Shown: piece by piece, positions 30,668 through 55,351 of the stretch
Layout: each line of letters opens with the position of its first letter
How positions within the stretch are numbered: the first letter of the stretch is position 1
Source: a virus
DNA: 64,000 nucleotides
Virus record (IMG/VR): IMGVR_UViG_3300035208_003217
Strand: one strand, 5' to 3'
Translations under genes and position numbers: made by a program
Notes under the pieces: generated by a model
The model's database searches: none
Seen by the model: the letters and a program-made list of their open reading frames with translations, nothing else
Told to the model about the DNA's origin: nothing

Positions 30668-30731
30668 TACTCCTTCCTATCTTTAAAAATTCTAAACTAC
30701 ACTCCTTCCTATCTTTAAAAATTCTAAACTA
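30668..30731. repeat. tandem direct repeat, 2 copies of about 32 bp (ACTCCTTCCTATCTTTAAAAATTCTAAACTA)
   Basis: Two identical 31-nt units separated by 1 nt, in the intergenic region where transcription switches direction. Confidence 0.8.
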
Positions 30732-35132: not shown

Positions 35133-36704
35133 ATGTATAAAATGTTACTTTTTGGGCAAGATGCTCGTGAAAAAATTAAAAAAGGTGTTAATATTTTAGC
35201 TGATGCTGTTAGTTCAACATTAGGACCTAGAGGACAAAATGTTATCTTTGAAGAAAGTTCATTCCCAACTATAACGAAAGATGGTGTAACAGTAGCTCAG
35301 CAAGTTTTTCTTGAAGATAAATTTGAAAATATGGGCAATATGACTGCTCGTGAAGCAGCAGAAAATACTAATCGTGAAGCAGGAGATGGAACAACAACAA
35401 CCATCGTTTTATTAAGAGAAATATTTAATGAAGGATATAAAGCTATAACATCAGGAATGAATTCTGTTCTTCTTAAAAGAGGAATGGATGAAGGATTAAA
35501 ATTTGTTTTAGAGAATTTAGATAAACAAGCTAAAAAAATTACAACAGATAAAGAAAAAGAACAAGTAGCTATTATTTCAGCAAACAATGATATTGAAATG
35601 GGAAAAATGATAGCTTCGGTTATTAAAGAAGTTGGGCAAGATGGAGTTGTAACTGTTTCAAGTTCTAATAATTTAAAGACAGAAGTAGAGTACATTAAAG
35701 GAACAAAATTAAACAGTGGATATGAAAGTCATTTATTTATGAATGATCCAAGAAATCTTTCAGCAGTAATGAATGATCCAGAAATTATTATTACAACAGA
35801 AAGAATAACTATGTCTTCTCAGATTTCTCCTATTATTCAAAAATGTATAGCAGCCGGTAAAAAGAATATGGTTCTATTTGCTGATGTAATTGAAGGACAA
35901 GCAATGGTATTTTTGGTTCAGAATTATTTACAAGGAAAGTTTGCTTGTGTTCCTGTTAAAGTTCCATCTTATGGAGGATATCAAAGAGATTTAATTTATG
36001 ATCTAGCAACACTAACAGAGGCTACAGTATTAGGACAACAAGATGCTAAAATGATAGAAGATGCAGAACTTACAGATTTAGGAAATGCTAAAAATGTTAT
36101 AATAGGAAGAGATCAGACAATTATTTCAGGATCTGAAGGAGATATTAAGAATCGTGTTAAAGAAATTAAAGCATTACTTGAAGAGGAAAAAGATCTTTTT
36201 AAGAAGGAAAAATTAAGACAAAGATTAGGAAGACTAAATGGAAAAATTGCTAATATTAAAGTAGGAGGAGCATCAGATTCAGAACAATTAGAAATTCGTT
36301 ATCGTGTTGAAGATGCTGTTAATGCTACTCGCTCAGCAATTGAAGAAGGAATTGTAGAAGGAGGAGGAACTGCTTTATTAAGATGTTATCAGGCAATACA
36401 AAAAATAGAAGAAAAAGGAACCAAAGAAGAACTTGAAGGATTAAAAATAGTTATTGAAGCATTAAAAGCTCCGTTAAGAAAGATAGTTGATAATGGAGGT
36501 ATCACCGGAGATTCGGTCGTTGCTAAAGTCTTAGAAGGAAAGTTAGGATATAATGCTCTTACTAATGAATATGAAGATTTATTTAAAACAGGAATTATTG
36601 ACCCTAAAAAAGTTGTAAGAAATGAAATAATTAATGCAGTAGCAACAGCCGGTATTTTATTAACATCAGGATGTGCAATTGTTATTAAACCAGAAATAAA
36701 ATAA
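35133..36704 (+). CDS. groEL: chaperonin GroEL (Hsp60)
   Basis: N-terminus LLFGQDAREKIKKGVNILADAVSSTLGPRGQNV and ATP-site AGDGTTTTIVL (GDGTTT). 523 aa. Confidence 0.85.
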   Translation: MYKMLLFGQDAREKIKKGVNILADAVSSTLGPRGQNVIFEESSFPTITKDGVTVAQQVFLEDKFENMGNMTAREAAENTNREAGDGTTTTIVLLREIFNEGYKAITSGMNSVLLKRGMDEGLKFVLENLDKQAKKITTDKEKEQVAIISANNDIEMGKMIASVIKEVGQDGVVTVSSSNNLKTEVEYIKGTKLNSGYESHLFMNDPRNLSAVMNDPEIIITTERITMSSQISPIIQKCIAAGKKNMVLFADVIEGQAMVFLVQNYLQGKFACVPVKVPSYGGYQRDLIYDLATLTEATVLGQQDAKMIEDAELTDLGNAKNVIIGRDQTIISGSEGDIKNRVKEIKALLEEEKDLFKKEKLRQRLGRLNGKIANIKVGGASDSEQLEIRYRVEDAVNATRSAIEEGIVEGGGTALLRCYQAIQKIEEKGTKEELEGLKIVIEALKAPLRKIVDNGGITGDSVVAKVLEGKLGYNALTNEYEDLFKTGIIDPKKVVRNEIINAVATAGILLTSGCAIVIKPEIK

Positions 36705-40182: not shown

Positions 40183-41403
40183 ATGGGACAATCTGTCTCT
40201 AATTTAGCCAATGCGGCTATGAGAGTCTACGATAAGGTTGTTCATGATCAAGTATTTCAAAAGAATGTTTTATTCATGAATATCTTACGTAATGTTGCTC
40301 AAGAAATTGGTGCAACTACAAAATACATTTCTCTTCATTATGATAGAAATGTAGGATCTGCTGCTGGAAGTGAAACAGTTGTTTTACCTATTGCTGGCAA
40401 TCAACAATACTTACAAGCTAATGTTACAATGAAATACAACTTTCATACAGTTAGTATTACAGATGTAGCTATTAAAGCTTCAGCAAGATCTAAAGAGTTT
40501 TTGGTTAATGTTCTTGAATCCGAATATCAAGGTGCCAAGAATGATATGCAAAGACAGTTAAGTCGTCAAGGTTATGGTATTGGTACTGGTGTTATCTGTC
40601 GTGTGAATGGAACTCCTTCACAAGGTGCTACATCAACAGTTACATTAGATACTCCAATGATTGGAAAATATCCAACAGATTATATTTCTATTGGAAATGG
40701 ATTAATGTTTTCAAGTGCTGCTGCCGCTGAAACTTCAGCTGTCTTTGGAACAGTATCTTCCATTCCGTCCAATACTACTTTAGTTTTTTCTGATGCTACT
40801 GGTGTTGCTGATGATGATTATGTATTTTTAGCACATACCAATGGTAGTACTCCAACAGTTTCCAATCTTAATGCCGAAATGATGGGTCTCAAAGGACTTA
40901 TTGATGATGGTGCTAATATTGATAGTTTTCAAGGTTTAGCTCGTACTACTTACAAATGGTGGCAATCTTATGTTGATGATGCTTCAACTCAAAGATCATT
41001 AACAGATGCTCTATTACATTCTACTTTTTTGGAAGCTAAAAAGAAAGGTGATCCGAAGTATATTTTAACATCTTTTGATGTTACTTCTGCTTATGGACAA
41101 CTTTTAACTCCAGATCGTAGATATGGTGTAGAGTTAAAACTTGAAGGTGGATTTTCCGGAGTTGGATTCAATGGTATTCCTATGGTAGCTGATTTTGATG
41201 CTCCATATGATGAAGCTTACTTTATTGATCCGAGTACATTATCTGTTGAAGATTTAGCTCCTATGTCCTTCTTACAAGAAGATGGTGCTATCTTAAATAG
41301 AAGTTCAACTCAACCAATTTGGAATGCTACTCTTCGTTACTATGCTAACTTAGCAAATAGCGCTCCAAATCAAAGTTCTGCTCTTCGTGATATCGTTAAA
41401 TAA
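40183..41403 (+). CDS. putative major capsid protein
   Basis: 406 aa ORF downstream of the scaffold gene. It is followed by a strong GC hairpin. Assigned by gene order only. Confidence 0.5.
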   Translation: MGQSVSNLANAAMRVYDKVVHDQVFQKNVLFMNILRNVAQEIGATTKYISLHYDRNVGSAAGSETVVLPIAGNQQYLQANVTMKYNFHTVSITDVAIKASARSKEFLVNVLESEYQGAKNDMQRQLSRQGYGIGTGVICRVNGTPSQGATSTVTLDTPMIGKYPTDYISIGNGLMFSSAAAAETSAVFGTVSSIPSNTTLVFSDATGVADDDYVFLAHTNGSTPTVSNLNAEMMGLKGLIDDGANIDSFQGLARTTYKWWQSYVDDASTQRSLTDALLHSTFLEAKKKGDPKYILTSFDVTSAYGQLLTPDRRYGVELKLEGGFSGVGFNGIPMVADFDAPYDEAYFIDPSTLSVEDLAPMSFLQEDGAILNRSSTQPIWNATLRYYANLANSAPNQSSALRDIVK

Positions 41404-42852: not shown

Positions 42853-43734
42853 ATGTTAATGGATAAACAATCAAAGATTACCGCAAAACGTGGTATGCCT
42901 ATTGATTTAACAAACATCGCAAAAAAAACTGTTACTAAAAATTCAGAAACTGTACAGTTATATTATTTTAATGGTACAACTTATACAATAGATGGTGGAC
43001 AAGTAGCTGGAACGGTTGTAGTTGGAAAAACTGCTTATGATCCAATTATTGGTCGTATTAATGGTAGTGTAGCATCTTATCAAGATTCCTCGTTATCATT
43101 TACATGTGCTGCTCTTACAACTGAAGTCGAATTAGAAGAAAATGCTTTTGAAGCGGCAGATTATTTAAGTCCTTCAGATAGAGCAATCTTTCTTACAAGA
43201 AATTTTGCTAATGGAGAATATTGTATTGATTATAAAAAAGGTATAATTTATGGAGTAAAAGCAACTACGGCAACTTCTTTAACATCAGTTCGTTATAGTA
43301 TTGCGGCAATTGTTACAATTGAATTTGCTGATGGACCTTCCACAAGTCCAAGTTCTTCACCTTCTTCTAGTAGATCAACTTCTATTTCAAGTTCACCATC
43401 AAGTTCTGTCTCACCATCTACCTCACCTTCAACAAGCCCTTCTTCTTCAGTATCTCCAAGTACCTCACCTTCAACATCTCCTTCTAGCAGTAAATCGACT
43501 TCACCTTCCTCTTCACCTTCTTCCTCTCCTAGCAGTTCTGAATCACCGTCAACAAGTCCTTCTAGTTCTGAATCAACATCTCCATCAACCTCTGAGTCTA
43601 CATCACTTTCCTCAAGTCCAAGTAGTTCTCCGTCTACATCACCTAGTTCTTCAGAATCCCCATCAACCAGTCCGTCATCTAGTCCAAGTAGTTCAGAATC
43701 TTCTTCTCCTTCAAGTTCTCCATCTGGAGCTTAA
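42853..43734 (+). CDS. virion-module protein with C-terminal Ser/Pro/Thr-rich low-complexity repeat tail (about 140 aa)
   Basis: A 150 aa globular N-terminal part, then PSTSPSSSPSSSRSTSISSSPSSSVSPSTSPSTSPSSS... running to the C-terminus. Confidence 0.6.
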   Translation: MLMDKQSKITAKRGMPIDLTNIAKKTVTKNSETVQLYYFNGTTYTIDGGQVAGTVVVGKTAYDPIIGRINGSVASYQDSSLSFTCAALTTEVELEENAFEAADYLSPSDRAIFLTRNFANGEYCIDYKKGIIYGVKATTATSLTSVRYSIAAIVTIEFADGPSTSPSSSPSSSRSTSISSSPSSSVSPSTSPSTSPSSSVSPSTSPSTSPSSSKSTSPSSSPSSSPSSSESPSTSPSSSESTSPSTSESTSLSSSPSSSPSTSPSSSESPSTSPSSSPSSSESSSPSSSPSGA

Positions 43735-43752
43735 TAATTAATTAATAAATTT

Positions 43753-45223: not shown

Positions 45224-46036
45224 ATGTTATCAATAATAATTCCAAGTTATAAAGATCCATATCTTCATAAAACAATAGATTCTCTTTTAGAAAATGCTGA
45301 AGGAGAAGTAGAAATAGTTGTTGTATTAGATGGATATCAGCCTACTATACCAATAAAAGAAGATAAAAGAATAAAAGTTATTCATTTAGGAAAAAATAGA
45401 GGAATGAGAGGAGCTATAAATGCTGGAGTATTAGTATCAAAAGGAGAATATATAATGAGAACTGATGAACATTGTTTATTTGGAAAAGGATATGATATTA
45501 TTCTTACAAAAGATATTGAAAATAATTGGATTGTTACTCCTAGACGTTATTTTTTAAATCCAGTAGATTGGAAAATAATGGATATTCCTCCTACAGATTA
45601 TGGAGACTTAAAGATACAAGGAACTGGTTCAGGAAGAAAATTTCATGGTCAAGAAAATAAAGAACTAGCAGAACAAAGAAAGAATATCATGATTGATGAA
45701 ACATTTGCTATGCAAGGTAGTTGTTGGATAATGAGACGATCTTGGTGGGATAAAGTTATTGGAGAACTTCAAATAGAAGGATATGGACCTCTCTATCAAG
45801 ATAGTCATGAAATGGTTTTTAAGACTTGGAAAGCAGGAGGCAAATTAATGGTTAATAAAAATACTTGGCACGCACATAAACATAGAAGCTTTAATAGAAC
45901 ACATAGCAATGGAACAAAAGAAAATCCGTCTAATAATGAAGCTTGTTTTGCTTATTCACTTAGTGTTTGGGAAGATTATTATAACGAATTAAAACAAAAT
46001 GGCAGATTTGACTATACTGTTCTTGACAAACAATAA
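45224..46036 (+). CDS. family 2 glycosyltransferase (GT-A)
   Basis: N-terminus LSIIIPSYKD...EIVVVLDG is typical of GT2 (IIP.YN then DD/DG). It is a paralog of the ORF at 49356..50321 (shared WHAHKHR / WYAHMFR region). Confidence 0.65.
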   Translation: MLSIIIPSYKDPYLHKTIDSLLENAEGEVEIVVVLDGYQPTIPIKEDKRIKVIHLGKNRGMRGAINAGVLVSKGEYIMRTDEHCLFGKGYDIILTKDIENNWIVTPRRYFLNPVDWKIMDIPPTDYGDLKIQGTGSGRKFHGQENKELAEQRKNIMIDETFAMQGSCWIMRRSWWDKVIGELQIEGYGPLYQDSHEMVFKTWKAGGKLMVNKNTWHAHKHRSFNRTHSNGTKENPSNNEACFAYSLSVWEDYYNELKQNGRFDYTVLDKQ

Positions 46037-46691
46037 GGTTCCTAAAAAATGGGCGGAATATCATTTTCAGAAATTAAAAGAAGCTGCAGGAGAATACCCT
46101 ATAATAACCATTTCAAGAATTCCAATGTCAGGAATAAATTTAATACAGACAGAATCAGAAAGTTCTTCGAATATTTATTGGCAATTATTAAGAGGTGCAA
46201 AACTTGCCGAGACTGAATATATTGCAGTAGCAGAGGATGATACACTTTATACTAAAGAACATTTTCATTCATTTAGACCTGATGGGGTATTTGCTTATAA
46301 TCTAAATCGTTGGACTTTATATACTTGGGGTGAACCTATTTATTCTTTAAAAAACTTTATAAGAACCAATGCAGTTTTAATTGCTCCTAGACAATTAGTT
46401 ATTGAAGCATTAGAGGAAAGATTTGCTAGATATCCACATGATATGAAAAATATTCCGTTAGGGATGTGTGGGGAGCTTGGATACTTTGAAAAGGAATTAG
46501 GAATAACATTAAGACGAGCAATTGAATTTAAAACAATAGAACCAGTTGTTCAATTCGACCACGATTATTTTACAGGGGATAATTCAGAGAAAGGATTAAA
46601 AAGAAGACATACAAAAATATTAGGAACCATAAGAGCTTATGATATTCCTGTATGGAGAAAAGCAAAAGATTTAGTAACAAAATTTATATGA
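45999..46691 (+). CDS. paralog A of a 3-member tandem family (putative nucleotide-sugar transferase-like)
   Basis: Shares AEDDTLY, TWGEP and LIAPR.L.IEALEERFA blocks with the next two ORFs. Confidence 0.45.
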   Translation: MADLTILFLTNNKVPKKWAEYHFQKLKEAAGEYPIITISRIPMSGINLIQTESESSSNIYWQLLRGAKLAETEYIAVAEDDTLYTKEHFHSFRPDGVFAYNLNRWTLYTWGEPIYSLKNFIRTNAVLIAPRQLVIEALEERFARYPHDMKNIPLGMCGELGYFEKELGITLRRAIEFKTIEPVVQFDHDYFTGDNSEKGLKRRHTKILGTIRAYDIPVWRKAKDLVTKFI

Positions 46692-46809
46692 TAGAAAATA
46701 TTAAAAAAAGAATTCCTTGGAATAAAGGTAAAAAAGGATTACAAATAGCCTGGAACAAAGGATTAAAAAGAAAAAGAATATTGGACAAATTATTTTAAAA
46801 TTAAAATGT

Positions 46810-47493
46810 ATGAAAATTAACGACATCACCGTTATTTATTTAACAGCAAGTTTAATTCCGGAAGAATTTGGAAAATTTCAAAGACAAACTTTAATAGATG
46901 CTATTGGAGATACTGCTTTAATTAGTGTATCAAGAAAACCTTTAGACTTTGGAATTAATATTATAGACGATGGGAAAAAGTGTACACACAATATATACGT
47001 CCAAATGTTACGAGCTGCTAAAATGGCTACTACAAAATATATAGCCATAGCGGAAGATGATACTTTATATCATGAAACACACTTTACATTTCATAGACCA
47101 GCAGATGATGTATTTGCTTACGACCAAAATAGATTAGCATTGTTTACTTGGGGTGAACCAATGTTTCACTGGAGAAATCGTCGAAGTAATTGTTCATTAA
47201 TTGCTCCTCGTGAACTTCTTATTGAAGCTCTCGAAGAACGATTTGCGAAATGGCCGAATGGAATTCCTGAAAATATTGTTGGAGAATTAGGAAGAGGAAT
47301 GGTTGAAAGAAATTTACATGTTATTGAACGTAAGTCAGAAGATGTATTTAATAAATTTTCCTTAATTCAGTTTAATCATGAAGCAGCATCAGAAAAAAGA
47401 CAAAGATTACATCGAAAATCATATGGTCCGATAAAAGCCTATGATATTCCAATCTGGGGCAAGGCTGGCGAATTAGTTAAAAAATATGTTTAA
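46810..47493 (+). CDS. paralog B of the tandem family
   Basis: AEDDTLY, TWGEP and LIAPRELLIEALEERFA. Confidence 0.45.
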   Translation: MKINDITVIYLTASLIPEEFGKFQRQTLIDAIGDTALISVSRKPLDFGINIIDDGKKCTHNIYVQMLRAAKMATTKYIAIAEDDTLYHETHFTFHRPADDVFAYDQNRLALFTWGEPMFHWRNRRSNCSLIAPRELLIEALEERFAKWPNGIPENIVGELGRGMVERNLHVIERKSEDVFNKFSLIQFNHEAASEKRQRLHRKSYGPIKAYDIPIWGKAGELVKKYV

Positions 47494-48145
47494 AGATTCA
47501 TATACTATCATCTATTATACCGGAAATCGTGAAAATTCTGAATTTGAAAAAAAGATAGTTGATAATTTAAAAGAACAAGCAGGTGATATACCAATTATAA
47601 GTGTCTCACAAAAACCAATGGATTTAGGAAAGAATATTTGTGTTGGTAATGTGGGATTTTCTTATTTAAACGAATGGAGACAGATATTAATTGGAGCTAA
47701 AGAAGCAACAACACCTTACATTATATTTGCTGAATCAGATTTTCTTTATCCTAAAGATTATTTTAAATTAATACCAAAAGGTTTAATGTATGTATATGAT
47801 AATATTTGGATTGTAATGGATAAAAAATATGGTGATTGGTTTTGGAGAAAGAAACAATCAGAAGGAGCACAAATTGTAGATAGAAAACTTTTAATAGAAA
47901 GATATACAGAATTTTTAGCAGGATATCCAATGTGGTGGGAAGGAGAAATAGTAATAGGTAAAAGAGGAAATAGTCCTTTATGTGGTGTTGCTTATGAATA
48001 TTTTACAGGAGACCCAGCAATTAGTTTCAAAACTGGAGATGGATTAAGAACAGTAACAAATGTTATTAAAAAAGATAAAAAAGAAAAACTTCCATTTTGG
48101 GGGTCTATAAAACAATTAAGACAAAAATATTATGAGGTTAACTAA
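47486..48145 (+). CDS. paralog C of the tandem family (more diverged)
   Basis: Collinear with paralogs A and B (AESDFLY). Confidence 0.4.
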   Translation: MFKDSYTIIYYTGNRENSEFEKKIVDNLKEQAGDIPIISVSQKPMDLGKNICVGNVGFSYLNEWRQILIGAKEATTPYIIFAESDFLYPKDYFKLIPKGLMYVYDNIWIVMDKKYGDWFWRKKQSEGAQIVDRKLLIERYTEFLAGYPMWWEGEIVIGKRGNSPLCGVAYEYFTGDPAISFKTGDGLRTVTNVIKKDKKEKLPFWGSIKQLRQKYYEVN

Positions 48146-48614
48146 AAATTGGAGTAGTCATATGGCTATGCTTATTAAAACAATAATGCTAACAGATAAA
48201 CCAGTACTGGAAATTGGTTCAGGATTATTTAGTACTCCTCTTATGCATTGGCTATGTAAGATGCGAGGTCTTAAATTAGTTACATATGAAAATATAGAAG
48301 AATATTATAAATTTGCTAAAGGATTTCAAAGTCCTAATCATCGAATTAAATTTGTCAAAGATTGGAATGAAATTGATTTAAAAACTCATTGGGGAGTTGT
48401 TTTAATAGATCATCATCCAAGTGAACAAAGAGGACTTGATGCTATTCGTTTAAAAGATAAGGCAGATTATTTAGTATTACATGATTCAGAAAAACCAGAA
48501 TTTTATAACTATGAACAAGCATACCCACATTTTAAATATAGATTTGATTGGATAGAGTGTAAACCTTGGACAACAGTACTTTCAAACTTTAAAGATTTAA
48601 CAAACTTAAAATAA
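48132..48614 (+). CDS. class I SAM-dependent methyltransferase-like protein
   Basis: Motif I VLEIGSGLFS (hh(D/E)hGxGxG). Confidence 0.5.
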   Translation: MRLTKNWSSHMAMLIKTIMLTDKPVLEIGSGLFSTPLMHWLCKMRGLKLVTYENIEEYYKFAKGFQSPNHRIKFVKDWNEIDLKTHWGVVLIDHHPSEQRGLDAIRLKDKADYLVLHDSEKPEFYNYEQAYPHFKYRFDWIECKPWTTVLSNFKDLTNLK

Positions 48615-48618
48615 ACGT

Positions 48619-49377
48619 ATGACAACAAAAATTTATGGATTAGGGTGGGTTGGTAAAGCTATGAAGACTCTTTTTCCGGAGTCATTAGTTCACGACCCAC
48701 AACAAGGATTATTTAGTGAAGAAAAATGTGATGTAGCATTTATCTGCGTTCCTACTCCATTAAAAGATGGAAAATTAGACACATCAATTGTAGAAAGTGT
48801 TATTAAAAATTGTGAAGAAGATTTAATAATTTGTCGTTCTACTGTGATGCCTGGAACTTGTGATAAGTTAGAAAAATTGGGAAAAAATATTGTCTTTCAA
48901 CCTGAATATTTAGGCGAAACAGTTAATCATCCAATGACAGATCAAAAAGCAAGACCATTTTTAATATTAGGAGGTAAGCCTGAAAACAGACGCAAGGTTA
49001 TAGAGCTTTATCAAAAATGCTATAACGCAAATATAACAATCAGACAGGTTAGCAATTACGAAGCAGAAATTATAAAGATGACAGAGAATCGGGCAATCGC
49101 ATTTAAAGTTGCTCAATGTCAAGAGTTATATGATGTATGTCAAGCTGCTGGTGTAGACTATTATACTATTCGCGATGCTGTCTATGGAGATGATCCTCGC
49201 TTTAACCTATGGTTTACATTTATATTTCCAGAAGCAAGAGGTTTTAATTCTAAATGTATTCCTAAAGATATTTATGGTTGGGCAAGTTGGGCGGAGTCAG
49301 TTGGTTGTATTCCTGAATTAACAAAAAAATTATTAGAAGTAAATGATAAATTAATATGCCAAAACTTAGTATCTTAA
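48619..49377 (+). CDS. UDP-glucose/GDP-mannose dehydrogenase family protein (short form)
   Basis: Rossmann GLGWVG, ICVPTP, STVMPGT and the catalytic-Cys motif GFNSKCIPKD (cf. GGSCFPKD). The usual C-terminal domain is absent. Confidence 0.6.
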   Translation: MTTKIYGLGWVGKAMKTLFPESLVHDPQQGLFSEEKCDVAFICVPTPLKDGKLDTSIVESVIKNCEEDLIICRSTVMPGTCDKLEKLGKNIVFQPEYLGETVNHPMTDQKARPFLILGGKPENRRKVIELYQKCYNANITIRQVSNYEAEIIKMTENRAIAFKVAQCQELYDVCQAAGVDYYTIRDAVYGDDPRFNLWFTFIFPEARGFNSKCIPKDIYGWASWAESVGCIPELTKKLLEVNDKLICQNLVS

Positions 49378-50321
49378 TACCATCAAGAAATGAAATGTTT
49401 CTTGGCAGAACAGTACAGGATATTCTTGAAAATATAGAAGACGATACTGAAATTATAGTTGGACTTGATGGATGTAAAGATAATTCAGAAATATTAAGTG
49501 ATCCACATGTTGTCGTAGTCAGAGTTGCTGAAGCTATCGGACAAAGAGCAATGACAAATTTATGTGCTAGATTATCAAAAGCAAAGTACCTAATGAAAGT
49601 TGATGCACATTGTTCATTTGATAAAGGATTTGATAGAAAGATGATAGAAAGAATGAAAGATAATTGGACAATGGTACCAACAATGAGAAATTTATGGGCA
49701 TATGATTGGAAATGTAATAATTGTGGTTGGAAAATGTATCAAGGACCTACTCCTCAAATTTGTCCAAGTTGTGATAAGAAAGGAAAGATAAGAAGAAAGA
49801 TGATGTGGATTGGAAAAATAAAACCACAAAGTAATTCTTACTGCTTTGATCAAGAACCACATTTTCAATATTTCAATGAATATACAAAAAGAGATGAATA
49901 TAAAAAGATGCTTGCTGATACTGGATTAACTGAAACAATGTCATTACAAGGTTCATGTTTTATGTTAACAAGAGAAAAGTATTGGGAATTAAATATCTGT
50001 GATGAATCATTTGGTAGTTGGGGAAGTCAAGGAATTGAAGTAGCTTGTAAAACTTGGTTATCAGGAGGAAAGGTTGTTGTTAATCACGATACTTGGTACG
50101 CTCATATGTTTAGGACTCAAGGAGGGGATTTTGGATTTCCTTATCCTCAATCTGGAACAAAAGTACAACAAGCAAAACAAACAGTAAGGGAATTGTTTTA
50201 TGATAATCGTTGGGAAGGTCAAGTTAGACCACTGTCGTGGTTAATCGAGAAATTTTGGCCAGTCCCAGGATGGGATGAAGATGCAAGACAGAAATTGCTG
50301 GCGTGGCCACTAAAGAGATAA
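49356..50321 (+). CDS. family 2 glycosyltransferase with inserted zinc ribbon
   Basis: LSILIPSRNE...IIVGLDG and an inserted CNNCGW...CPSCDKK zinc ribbon. Confidence 0.65.
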   Translation: MPKLSILIPSRNEMFLGRTVQDILENIEDDTEIIVGLDGCKDNSEILSDPHVVVVRVAEAIGQRAMTNLCARLSKAKYLMKVDAHCSFDKGFDRKMIERMKDNWTMVPTMRNLWAYDWKCNNCGWKMYQGPTPQICPSCDKKGKIRRKMMWIGKIKPQSNSYCFDQEPHFQYFNEYTKRDEYKKMLADTGLTETMSLQGSCFMLTREKYWELNICDESFGSWGSQGIEVACKTWLSGGKVVVNHDTWYAHMFRTQGGDFGFPYPQSGTKVQQAKQTVRELFYDNRWEGQVRPLSWLIEKFWPVPGWDEDARQKLLAWPLKR

Positions 50322-52953: not shown

Positions 52954-54156
52954 ATGGCTAGTTATTTATTAAAAGAAGATGGGGATTATGTCCTAAAAGA
53001 AGACGGAGATCTGATATTATTAGATGGTGTCTTTTCTAGTCCATCTACTAGTATTAGTTCATCGCCAAGTAGAAGTGTATCAAGCTCACCTAGCACGTCT
53101 TTATCTTTAAGTCCGTCAAGAAGTATTAGTAGTTCAGTATCTCCTTCTACTTCTCCGAGTAGCAGTTTATCTTCTTCTCCTAGTACGTCGGAGTCAACCT
53201 CACCATCTTCATCCGTTAGTAGCTCTATTTCTCCAAGCACCTCACCAAGTTCATCAGAATCAACTAGTATTTCTGATAGTCCCTCCGTATCCGAATCAAC
53301 CTCCCCTAGCAGCTCTCCTTCTGTAAAACCATCTATATCGTCTAGCCCTAGTGAAAGCCTATCATTATCTCCTTCTTCTAGTGAATCAACATCTGAATCT
53401 ACATCAATATCTAGTTCAGTAAGTCCTTCTAGTTCAATTAGTGAATCTCCTTCTAGTTCAGAAAGTACTAGTATTTCTAGCTCTGTGTCTCCATCAACTT
53501 CAATAAGTAGTTCCCCTTCTTTATCTATATCGAGTTCGGTATCACCTTCTACATCGATAAGTAGTTCATTATCTACATCACCTAGTACTTCTATTAGTAC
53601 ATCACCTTCTACATCGATTTCAAGTTCTGAATCTACATCAATTTCCTCTTCAGTATCACCATCTACATCGATTAGTTCTAGTATTTCATTAAGTCCTTCT
53701 AGCAGTATTTCTACTTCCATTAGTAGTTCTTTAAGTTCTTCACCATCAACAAGTCCAAGTCCATCAATCTCTCCTAGTACTTCTCCGAGTAGTTCTATTA
53801 GCACTTCTCCTTCAAGATCTATATCATCGTCAATTAGTAGTTCGATATCAAGCTCAATTTCTTTATCACCTAGTCGATCAATTAGTTTATCTCCTAGTAG
53901 ATCTTTATCGAGTTCTCCGTCAAGTTCTATTTCTTCTTCTATTTCACATAGTCCATCTAGTTCTATTAGTAGTTCGCCTAGTACTAGTATTAGTAGTTCC
54001 GTCTCAGCAAGTCCTTCTCCGCCATCAGATTTTACTCCAAAAGTCTTAAACTTTATTCAAGATAAGAAACCTAAATCAATCTACTTTATTCAAGATAAGA
54101 AACCTAAATCAATCTACTTTATTACGGATAAAGTACCTAAGATATTTAAAAAATAA
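52954..54156 (+). CDS. protein composed mostly of (S-x-S-P-S) Ser/Pro/Thr repeats (about 330 aa) with duplicated LKEDGD N-terminus and FIQDKKPKSIY C-terminal repeats
   Basis: MASYLLKEDGDYVLKEDGDLILLDG, then SPSTSISSSPSRSVSSSPS..., ending FIQDKKPKSIYFIQDKKPKSIYFITDKVPKIFKK. Confidence 0.55.
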   Translation: MASYLLKEDGDYVLKEDGDLILLDGVFSSPSTSISSSPSRSVSSSPSTSLSLSPSRSISSSVSPSTSPSSSLSSSPSTSESTSPSSSVSSSISPSTSPSSSESTSISDSPSVSESTSPSSSPSVKPSISSSPSESLSLSPSSSESTSESTSISSSVSPSSSISESPSSSESTSISSSVSPSTSISSSPSLSISSSVSPSTSISSSLSTSPSTSISTSPSTSISSSESTSISSSVSPSTSISSSISLSPSSSISTSISSSLSSSPSTSPSPSISPSTSPSSSISTSPSRSISSSISSSISSSISLSPSRSISLSPSRSLSSSPSSSISSSISHSPSSSISSSPSTSISSSVSASPSPPSDFTPKVLNFIQDKKPKSIYFIQDKKPKSIYFITDKVPKIFKK

Positions 54157-54160
54157 CAAT

Positions 54161-55351
54161 ATGCCATCATATCTACAGACTAAACAAAACAAAATAAAAA
54201 TTGCTAACCCGCCATTAGAAGATGAAGCAAGAACATATCTAACAGCAGATTGTGCTATTGGAGCCACAACTCTTGCCACACTAGATAATGGAGGATTTAT
54301 TATAACAGGAACATCTGATTATTATATTATTATAGGTGAATATGGATCAGAAAAAGCTGAGATAGTATTAGTCGATGCTAACGGAGCAGGAACATCATCT
54401 ACTGGATTTACAGTATCTGCGACAAAATATTCACATGAAGCTTCAGATCCTATTACTTTTATAAGATTTAATCAAATTTTATTTTATGGAAAAATAGCAA
54501 CAGAAGGAACAAGAGTTCTTTTGTCGACAAAAGAAATAGATTGTTCACAATTATTTACGGATTACACATATGCTGGTGATACTTACAGTTTTTTTGATTC
54601 GGCATATTATAATAGTACAGATGATAAAATATCAGTTTATTCAGATGAAATAGATAATACTTCGTTTACTCGTCAATCAATAAAAAGAATTATAGAATCT
54701 GGTCTTAGAAAAGCATTAACAAAACTTGAAGATAATCCTGAAGCAGAATTAAATTGGGATGTAGCTATTGAAACAGTTCAAGATGGAGTAGACGAAATAG
54801 TTGCTAAAAAAAGACGCTGGCCATTTTTAAGAACAATAAATTCTAGTACATCAACAGTAGCATCTCAACAATATATTGATAAACCAGATGATTTATTATT
54901 ATTAGAATACATTAAAGTAAATTCTAGAAAACTTGACTTTATGAGTCAGACTGATTATAATAACTATACAGCAACAGGAGATACAGTTCCAACAGGACAA
55001 CCTACAAATTATACAATTAAAAATAATAAATTTTATTTATTTCCAACACCTGATGCGGTTTATACCATTATCTTTGAATACTATAAAACAATAGCAGAAA
55101 TTACATCAGATTTATCTACTGAAATTGACTTTCCTTTTATTCCTATTTTAATATATTATTGTGCAGCACAATTTGCTTATATTAGAGGAAATGACAAAAG
55201 AGGAGACAAAATGTATAATATGTTTCTTAAGATACTCGATGACCAGATTATTGAATATTCTGGTCCAGAGCAAATGGGGGATGCTGAATATGTAGAAAAA
55301 ACATCAACTTATAATAGCAATGATGATGCTATAGTTGTCGAATTAGAATAA
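54161..55351 (+). CDS. hypothetical structural protein
   Basis: 396 aa. Confidence 0.45.
   Translation: MPSYLQTKQNKIKIANPPLEDEARTYLTADCAIGATTLATLDNGGFIITGTSDYYIIIGEYGSEKAEIVLVDANGAGTSSTGFTVSATKYSHEASDPITFIRFNQILFYGKIATEGTRVLLSTKEIDCSQLFTDYTYAGDTYSFFDSAYYNSTDDKISVYSDEIDNTSFTRQSIKRIIESGLRKALTKLEDNPEAELNWDVAIETVQDGVDEIVAKKRRWPFLRTINSSTSTVASQQYIDKPDDLLLLEYIKVNSRKLDFMSQTDYNNYTATGDTVPTGQPTNYTIKNNKFYLFPTPDAVYTIIFEYYKTIAEITSDLSTEIDFPFIPILIYYCAAQFAYIRGNDKRGDKMYNMFLKILDDQIIEYSGPEQMGDAEYVEKTSTYNSNDDAIVVELE

Follow-up and report, generated by a model that had tools for sequence, protein, structure and literature searches.

Serine-dipeptide repeats encoded beside dedicated glycosyltransferases are known from the Sdr proteins and the serine-rich repeat proteins (SRRPs), which are glycosylated (PMC8360574, PMC3794999, PMC6973325). 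Mycobacteriophages use glycosyltransferases of their own to glycosylate capsid and tail-tube proteins (PMC12363180, PMC11600133, both citing Freeman 2023). The locus described here lies in a 64,000-nucleotide viral sequence (IMG/VR record IMGVR_UViG_3300035208_003217), referred to below as the window. It centres on a gene at 42853-43734, the target, whose product ends in a strict serine-dipeptide (Ser-X, or S-X) tail, and on a downstream cassette of seven sugar-related genes. Our best explanation, which we consider rather probable, is that the target forms a virion-anchored filament that a host-derived phage cassette would O-glycosylate; its glycosylation, its sugar and its position on the virion are inferred.

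The target gene and its serine tail

42853-43734, plus strand: target gene, ATG start, 293 amino acids (aa); N-terminal domain plus C-terminal (Ser-X)65 tail; homologs P0001, P0002 and P0003
42853-43335, plus strand: N-terminal domain, aa 1-161; unannotated phage family, presumed virion anchor
43339-43728, plus strand: (Ser-X)65 dipeptide repeat, aa 163-292; proposed O-glycosylation substrate

The initial annotation described this open reading frame (ORF) as an ordered domain followed by a Ser/Pro/Thr tail. This two-part layout holds, with the domain lengthened from 150 to about 160 aa and the tail shortened from 140 to 130-132 aa. An AlphaFold2 model of the domain, built from a 50-sequence alignment, reaches a mean predicted local distance difference test (pLDDT) of 85.7 and a predicted template modelling score of 0.80. 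Residues 1-160 have an ordinary composition. The 132 residues from aa 161 to the C-terminus include 82 Ser, 24 Pro, 13 Thr and 5 Glu, and serine occupies 65 of 65 alternate positions between aa 163 and 291, an arrangement with a chance of about 1e-21 given the composition. The repeats had been called degenerate PS(T/S)SPSSS units running to the C-terminus; their extent is as claimed, but the Ser-X alternation is strict. Its X positions hold Pro (35%), Ser (26%), Thr (20%) and Glu (8%), and a looser tetrapeptide, [P/V/E/K/I/L/R]-S-[S/T]-S, overlies it.

At the DNA level, as already noticed in the initial annotation, the codons vary. All six Ser codons, from both codon boxes, appear at the invariant position (TCA 37%, TCT 34%, AGT 18%, TCC 6%, AGC 3%, TCG 2%), and copies of the repeat are 60-81% identical to one another. 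The Ser-X pattern is therefore held at the protein level and does not stem from recent DNA slippage. Guanine-plus-cytosine (GC) content is 43.6% over the (Ser-X)65 tract versus 32.1% over the N-terminal domain. The protein ends in ...SSSPSSSPSGA directly before the stop codon. Because no distal domain follows, the tail cannot be a linker, and the flexible-linker reading offered earlier as an alternative to O-glycosylation is rejected.

Two other frames are open across the repeat: a stop-free antisense frame of 145 codons (43296-43730), which corresponds to the artefactual ORF predicted earlier, and a shifted same-strand frame of 152 codons, listed as ORF 43301..43741. The antisense strand of (Ser-X)n genes typically reads as a long Asp/Glu/Leu-rich open frame, for example at 52986-53804 (minus strand) in the window. 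In four related loci, public gene calls pick this antisense ORF over the real gene (L067 12783-13388, L068 13998-14654, L070 14439-15149, L071 15221-16057). Proteins with (Ser-X)n repeats are therefore largely missing from protein databases.

The sugar cassette and its enzymes

The cassette was placed 1.5 kb downstream of the target by the initial annotation, and its first GT2 gene indeed starts at 45224, 1.49 kb past the target stop codon.

45224-46036, plus strand: GT2a, GT-A glycosyltransferase resembling polypeptide GalNAc-transferases (ppGalNAc-Ts); motifs TDEHC ... SHEMVFKTWKAGG ... HAHKHR; PF00535, E 1.4e-17
45999-46691, plus strand: p230, first of three tandem p226-family paralogs; conserved AEDD (DxD-like) motif; no Pfam match; weak match to SpsA
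46810-47493, plus strand: p227, second p226 paralog; more than 1,000 homologs
47486-48145, plus strand: p219, third and most diverged p226 paralog; weak GT2 match
48132-48614, plus strand: g160, conserved cassette member; GxGxG-like motif VLEIGSGLFS; no family match
48619-49377, plus strand: truncated nucleotide-sugar dehydrogenase, 252 aa; PF00984 and PF03721; TIGR03026, E 6.6e-32
49356-50321, plus strand: GT2b, resembling ppGalNAc-Ts, with an inserted zinc ribbon; motifs KVDAHC ... WGSQGIEVACKTWLSGG ... AHMFR; 5,352 homologs

Mucin-type O-glycosylation of Pro/Ser/Thr-rich repeats is started by ppGalNAc-Ts, which prefer sites close to prolines; Pro takes up 35% of the X positions in the target tail. 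Judged by profile and motif, the two cassette GT2 enzymes, which are paralogs, are closest to this family. All 16 PDB matches of GT2b at E<=0.01 are ppGalNAc-Ts (best E 1.3e-7), and residues 44-257 of GT2a align to ppGalNAc-T 6s22 with the same motifs. The DxH motif, KVDAHC in GT2b and TDEHC in GT2a, aligns to LDSHC / LDAHC of ppGalNAc-T9, T1 and 6s22, and its D83, H85 and C86 are invariant in seven of seven cassette enzymes. Further along GT2b, the Gal/GalNAc-T motif WGSQGIEVACKTWLSGG aligns to WGGENLELSFKTWMCGG, and the downstream His of xHxFR is retained, with AHMFR aligned to GHIFR. A profile of the seven cassette enzymes finds ppGalNAc-T1 at E 8.9e-12, and its top seven PDB matches are all ppGalNAc-Ts; ordinary GT2 structures match that profile over the generic N-terminal half only. 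The top PDB match of GT2a, GalT1 (5hea, an SRRP enzyme), is not relied on, as it covers only the generic N-terminal GT-A region. GT2b carries a CxxC...CxxC zinc ribbon at residues 116-147, between the GT-A halves, that is kept in bacterial copies and absent from GT2a. The best annotation among GT2b homologs is "glycosyltransferase involved in cell wall biosynthesis".

The three tandem p226 paralogs (45999-48145) share 46% and 32% identity and belong to a 226-aa family with an invariant AEDD; the gene lists of bacterial loci L067 and L068 annotate a single copy. Homologs of p227 are 61-91% identical among the best 120 of more than 1,000, and several are named to Patescibacteria metagenome-assembled genomes. 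Neither the p226 family nor g160 belongs to a Pfam family, the best p226 match being the weak one to SpsA (E 0.69). Many cassettes, those of L067 and L068 among them, retain g160, which from its GxGxG-like motif may have a methyltransferase-like fold. The dehydrogenase covers positions 75-295 of the 413 in the TIGR03026 profile, without the C-terminal UDP-binding domain, and is 88% conserved in related phages and 56-78% in bacterial loci.

Serine tail and cassette among phages

Among the 151 best members of the N-terminal domain family, (S-X)n is confined to the closest relatives of the target. The comparison of repeat number across relatives, suggested in the initial annotation, finds an in-frame tail conserved in at least 8 lineages, at lengths of 48-130 aa:

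window: 130 aa
L001 / P0002: 118 aa
L007 group: 96 aa
P0004: 88 aa
L122: 72 aa
P0001: 48 aa
L121: at least 57 aa (contig ends)
L123: at least 43 aa (contig ends)

The length polymorphism expected earlier thus exists between lineages but not within the one lineage compared, where the target homolog is identical in five contigs from five different assemblies (0 differences in 780 nucleotides, nt). The tract is therefore not hypermutable on short timescales. In L121 (1123-1785) and L123 (643-1263), TGA occurs at conserved Gly positions, as it does in the tail-less P0003/L002 (9174-10010); these phages therefore use genetic code 25 (Gracilibacteria/Absconditabacteria).

Presence of the tail follows presence of the cassette:

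window: tailed protein, cassette and second (S-X)n protein present
L007, L008, L070 and L071: tailed protein, cassette and second (S-X)n protein present
L001 and L072: tailed protein and cassette present; contigs stop short of where the second (S-X)n protein would lie
L023-L025: no tail (a 362-aa globular version), no cassette, no second (S-X)n protein

Wherever a phage contig is long enough to tell, a tailed target homolog is accompanied by the seven-gene cassette; the P0004 contigs are too short to reach the cassette position. The sister lineage L023-L025 is 69% identical to the window in the capsid and 64% in the portal. Its interval from the target-family gene to the adaptor gene, fully sequenced, holds only a 459-aa structural protein and lysis genes.

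The same module in Patescibacteria

A scan of all species-representative genomes found 47 cassette loci. Of these, 46 are bacterial, and the label of most is Patescibacteria. Runs of (S-X) with at least 12 repeats were counted within the 10 kb retrieved around bacterial cassette genes. Of the 46 bacterial loci, 18 have such runs downstream on the same strand, one has a run upstream and none has one on the opposite strand. For the 23 loci that extend 6 kb or more on each side, the split is 13 downstream versus 0 upstream (binomial p 2.5e-11). Phage loci that lack the cassette, 912 kb in all, contain a run of this size in one locus only. The Ser-X alternation is kept although the X residues drift from P/S/T to P/V/I/A and GC content ranges from 29 to 47%.

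Two loci illustrate the arrangement. In Candidatus Andersenbacteria (L068/L069, 44.6% GC), a chromosomal core of GT2a, p226, g160-like and GT2b genes with a sulfotransferase-like gene is flanked by the housekeeping genes for IF-2, RbfA, TatC and UvrD. Downstream of this core comes a protein of 687 aa, with about 230 aa of (S-X)n making up its C-terminal third. The L067 cassette, on a 568-kb contig of 42% GC, is embedded in a prophage-like region that also encodes a tail-collar domain, a collagen-like protein and an integrase. Two proteins come after it, one of 535 aa with a LamG domain and 282 aa of (S-X)n, the other of 740 aa with its (S-X)n in two segments. The longest runs, 1,122 and 1,370 residues, occur in ORFs of 1,551 aa (L100 11132-15787) and 2,323 aa (L114 13336-20307).

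These two giant Patescibacteria proteins lack a signal peptide, and short tandem motifs, IKT(I/V)NG for example, close their sequences; the N-terminal domain of the L100 protein resembles that of the 740-aa prophage protein in L067. Some bacterial cassettes carry extra tailoring genes, a sulfotransferase-like gene in L068 (12171-12758) and a class I methyltransferase gene in L067 (9405-10016), which hint that glycan decoration could vary.

Taken together, four independent comparative lines, namely conservation of the tail, co-occurrence in phages, co-occurrence in bacteria and enzyme type, support the reading of the tail as a putative mucin-like O-glycosylation substrate, the alternative that the initial annotation had set beside the linker.

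The N-terminal domain family

A word-indexed search with the target finds three relatives only, and a full profile search with the N-terminal domain retrieves 474 cluster representatives at E<=1e-3, 133 of them at E<=1e-30. The match covers residues 1-155 in all 474, in proteins with total lengths of 159-762 aa, and the conserved motifs are QRGxPVD, TxDAGQAAG, SLSFTSTALTTE and NGxYCVDYxxGxIYGKK. The N-terminus of the target (MLMDKQSKITAKRGMPIDL...) is hydrophilic and belongs to this domain. The C-terminal parts of family members are mutually unrelated and mostly beta-rich and globular in appearance.

The domain has no match in Pfam, PHROG, NCBIfam or PDB; across the family, Pfam matches are absent from all 67 members scanned and PHROG matches are sporadic. 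A tblastn search of 50,697 phage records with the domain and with a typical family member gave no match. An IMG/VR scan with the single target protein also found nothing, whereas an alignment-based scan did find loci. An AlphaFold2 run with 4 sequences (pLDDT 30.5) was discarded.

In 60 IMG/VR loci and the window, the gene lies one to four genes after a capsid-like gene. It also lies upstream of fibre-like genes and, where the contig extends that far, of SU10-type adaptor/nozzle genes. The earlier label "head-proximal" therefore stands as a statement of gene order only, the target being the fourth gene after the major capsid gene. A conserved N-terminus joined to a hypervariable C-terminus is the pattern of virion proteins attached at one end and exposed at the other, a role that we infer for the target; it may dock on the head or on the tail of the virion. 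In L014 (9428-9841), a 98-kb viral contig, the ORF directly upstream of a family member codes for a different kind of Ser-rich repeat, long tracts of (S-T-S-S)n.

A second (Ser-X)n protein

52954-54156, plus strand: second (Ser-X)n protein, 400 aa; directly upstream of the SU10-type adaptor gene (54161)

This protein starts with a peptide of 27 aa, continues with two (S-X) runs (96 and 230 aa) and closes with a Lys-rich C-terminus that is conserved. The latter reads SDFTP...KKPK x3...PKIFKK, and relatives keep SDFTP...KKPK...PKIFK. It includes three copies of the 11-residue Lys-rich FIQDKKPKSIY, which come from a near-perfect 33-nt tandem repeat at 54050-54140. Relatives carry interchangeable N-terminal domains of 300-370 aa, and the N-terminal part is swapped between L070 and L071 even though their target genes are identical. 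This architecture suggests a C-terminal anchor with an exchangeable distal domain, and the repeat is probably a glycosylated stalk. Its X positions are I/S/P-rich versus P/S/T-rich in the target.

Phage genome around the target

The window is a phage genome segment of about 29% GC with a plus-strand late-gene block from about 31 kb to its end. The block opens with a terminase, a GroEL-like chaperonin, a P22/SU10-type portal (37222), a scaffold-like gene and the major capsid gene. The major capsid protein (40183-41403; phrog_14242, E 9e-50) shares at most about 25% identity with that of any cultured phage and lacks a Ser-rich extension; long (S-X)n runs occur in two window proteins only. Three small genes separate it from the target. 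A lysis-like trio follows (66-aa and 101-aa membrane proteins and a 313-aa protein), then the seven sugar-related genes (45224-50321), an 839-aa fibre-like protein, the 400-aa (Ser-X)n protein, the SU10-type adaptor at 54161 (PF24175, E 1.5e-18) and more tail genes. The cassette thus sits among late structural genes running from capsid to adaptor, all on the plus strand, between two (S-X)n genes. The phage is short-tailed, without a tail tube. That it infects Patescibacteria, or Candidate Phyla Radiation (CPR) bacteria, is part of our best explanation and appears fairly likely.

Scans of the small neighbour proteins of the target against Pfam, PHROGs and NCBIfam returned nothing, and a promoter and terminator scan of 39-55 kb gave counts equal to the shuffled expectation. 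The window reads cleanly in the standard code, with TGA ending 3 of 69 ORFs. The chaperonin gene is full length (523 aa, 35133-36704, between terminase and portal) and is kept in L001, L002, L023 and L027. A perfect 32-nt direct repeat in two copies (30669-30731) occupies the gap where the minus- and plus-strand blocks diverge and could be a regulatory or origin element.

Proposed mechanism and alternative explanations

In the proposed mechanism, the target would be a structural protein whose 160-aa N-terminal domain docks onto the virion, and the variable globular C-terminal module usual in its family would be replaced by the 130-residue (Ser-X)65 tail. The phage cassette would O-glycosylate the tail serines in the cytoplasm of the host, at a late stage of infection. 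Its actors would be the two ppGalNAc-T-like GT-A enzymes, the three DxD-protein paralogs, the small conserved protein and the truncated nucleotide-sugar dehydrogenase. The second (Ser-X)n protein would be glycosylated by the same cassette. The product would be extended mucin-like glycofilaments on the particle, about 30-40 nm long for the target at about 2.5-3 Å per residue. The module would come from hosts in which the cassette sits upstream of giant (Ser-X)n proteins, an origin that we regard as reasonably probable. As to function, adhesion to or mimicry of the host surface is our leading guess, given that the tail stands where other family members have a presumably ligand-binding module, and that it copies (S-X)n proteins of the host; alternatively, the filament might protect the particle.

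Several observations weigh against this explanation. Three lysis-like genes separate the target from the cassette, and the cassette dehydrogenase is truncated. The N-terminal halves of the GT2 enzymes also match generic polysaccharide synthases such as PgaC and TuaG in NCBIfam. Among the 23 bacterial loci sequenced for 6 kb or more on either side of the cassette gene, ten lack a downstream (S-X)n run within the 10 kb retrieved; loci of this kind are mostly labelled Gammaproteobacteria. The phage co-occurrence amounts essentially to a single gain or loss in one clade, so that, taken alone, it is suggestive only. Finally, the presence of the target on virions and its sugar are so far predictions from sequence.

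That last point, like the position of the lysis genes, also favours the strongest rival, in which the tail is an unmodified disordered "bristle" or spacer and the cassette remodels the host envelope, either its cell-wall or surface polysaccharide or for superinfection exclusion. GT2 enzymes commonly build polysaccharides, the cassette has weak NCBIfam matches to PgaC, TuaG and TuaD, and the CPR-phage literature reads glycan genes as auxiliary genes for host surface modification (bioRxiv 10.1101/2025.02.25.640227). We nevertheless judge it unlikely, though worth serious attention. A spacer role fits poorly with a tail that lacks a distal domain and cannot be a linker. The cassette is linked to (S-X)n genes directionally and on the same strand in three unrelated genomic contexts spanning 29-47% GC, and in the window it stands within the late structural block between two such genes. 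Moreover, the C-terminal halves of both GT2 enzymes match ppGalNAc-Ts only.

It is less probable still that host enzymes or another chemistry, such as phosphorylation, modify the tail while the phage cassette serves the second (S-X)n protein alone or has other targets. The existence of the same cassette in hosts, which could make the phage copy redundant, and the unlike X compositions of the two phage proteins speak for this possibility; the constant pairing of tailed homologs with a phage cassette in contigs long enough to test, and the lack of a kinase in Pfam and NCBIfam scans of the region, speak against it. Lastly, that the repeat is not translated as Ser-X at all, but reflects an artefact of low-complexity DNA, a misassigned frame or what is left of a gene in decay, is hardly credible: two other frames are open and public gene callers often choose the antisense one, yet the Ser-X frame runs on unbroken from a conserved and foldable domain, persists in at least 8 lineages that differ in DNA, length and genetic code, and draws on Ser codons from both boxes at the invariant position.

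Broader meaning

The explanation that we prefer, a phage-glycosylated virion filament, can be extended tentatively. Patescibacteria and their phages might share a dedicated, hitherto undescribed mucin-type O-glycosylation system, with ppGalNAc-T-like GT-A enzymes, a DxD family and (Ser-X)n substrates of more than 1,300 residues, from which phages captured enzyme and substrate for a host-like glycofilament coat serving mimicry or adhesion. The enzymes may then be prokaryotic relatives of the eukaryotic mucin initiators. We give this wider proposal somewhat less than even credence.

If true, it would mean that a major surface system has been overlooked in uncultured bacteria. Close homologs of the two core enzymes number in the thousands in Patescibacteria, where they are annotated just "glycosyltransferase" or "hypothetical", and the giant (Ser-X)n substrates are often missed when gene callers annotate the antisense frame. 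It would also add a second kind of phage virion glycosylation to the mycobacteriophage case, one with dedicated mucin-like carriers and not capsid subunits. Three questions follow: how the cell surface is assembled in CPR bacteria, which live attached to other cells; whether phages copy that surface; and whether bacterial relatives of mucin-type O-glycosylation initiators exist. All three are approachable with recombinant proteins and need no host culture.

Comparison with known systems

On the enzyme side, the closest family is GT27, the eukaryotic ppGalNAc-Ts that act on mucin Pro/Thr/Ser repeats. The DxH motif, WGxExxE..W.xGG and the His of xHxFR all align, and the presumed substrate is likewise Pro/Ser/Thr-rich. 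Unlike GT27 enzymes, which carry a ricin-type lectin domain and a type II membrane anchor, GT2a and GT2b have no such Pfam domains; they are much shorter (270 and 321 aa), one has the zinc-ribbon insert, and identity outside the motifs is low. GT27 enzymes transfer GalNAc from UDP-GalNAc to Ser/Thr, whereas for GT2a and GT2b donor and activity are predicted at most. Within an incomplete coverage of the literature, no paper was found that links Patescibacteria or phages with serine-repeat glycoproteins or GT27-like enzymes.

On the substrate side, the SRRPs GspB, Fap1, SraP and PsrP also combine long tracts with serine at every second position and dedicated glycosyltransferase genes alongside. 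They are glycosylated in the cytoplasm before export and form an extended fibril (PMC6973325, PMC7661464), and the target is predicted to be modified before assembly and displayed in a like manner. The differences are many. SRRPs have a long atypical signal peptide and an accessory SecA2/SecY2/Asp export system; the N-terminus of the target is hydrophilic, and none of the 20 neighbouring gene products scanned has a Sec-related Pfam match. SRRPs end in an LPXTG wall anchor and the target in ...SPSGA. Their enzymes are a GtfA/GtfB pair (GT4, GT-B), whereas the phage cassette encodes GT-A enzymes of the GT2/ppGalNAc-T-like type with a novel DxD family. SRRPs belong to Gram-positive bacteria, and the repeats described here to Patescibacteria and phages, with a putative virion protein as the phage carrier. 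Lacking the signal peptide, LPXTG, accessory Sec and GtfA/B, the target is rejected as an SRRP.

The Clf/Sdr proteins, modified by SdgA/SdgB, share a strict Ser-dipeptide repeat encoded beside glycosyltransferase genes, and there the modification protects and decorates a surface stalk (PMC3794999, PMC8360574). In those proteins X is Asp; here it is P/S/T/V/I/E, with no Asp in the target. The enzymes are of another family, and the Clf/Sdr repeat is a stalk between a ligand-binding domain and a wall anchor, in contrast to the free C-terminal tail of the target.

Among phages, the nearest parallel is offered by the mycobacteriophages Che8, Corndog and Myrna. Their glycosyltransferase genes lie within or next to structural genes with a methyltransferase nearby, and the enzymes modify virion proteins as these are assembled (Freeman et al. 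2023, as cited in PMC12363180 and PMC11600133). Their hosts belong to another phylum, the window phage is known from metagenomes alone, and no kinship of their enzymes to the cassette is claimed. Their substrates are the major capsid and tail-tube subunits, whereas the system proposed here would devote two (S-X)n proteins to the purpose.

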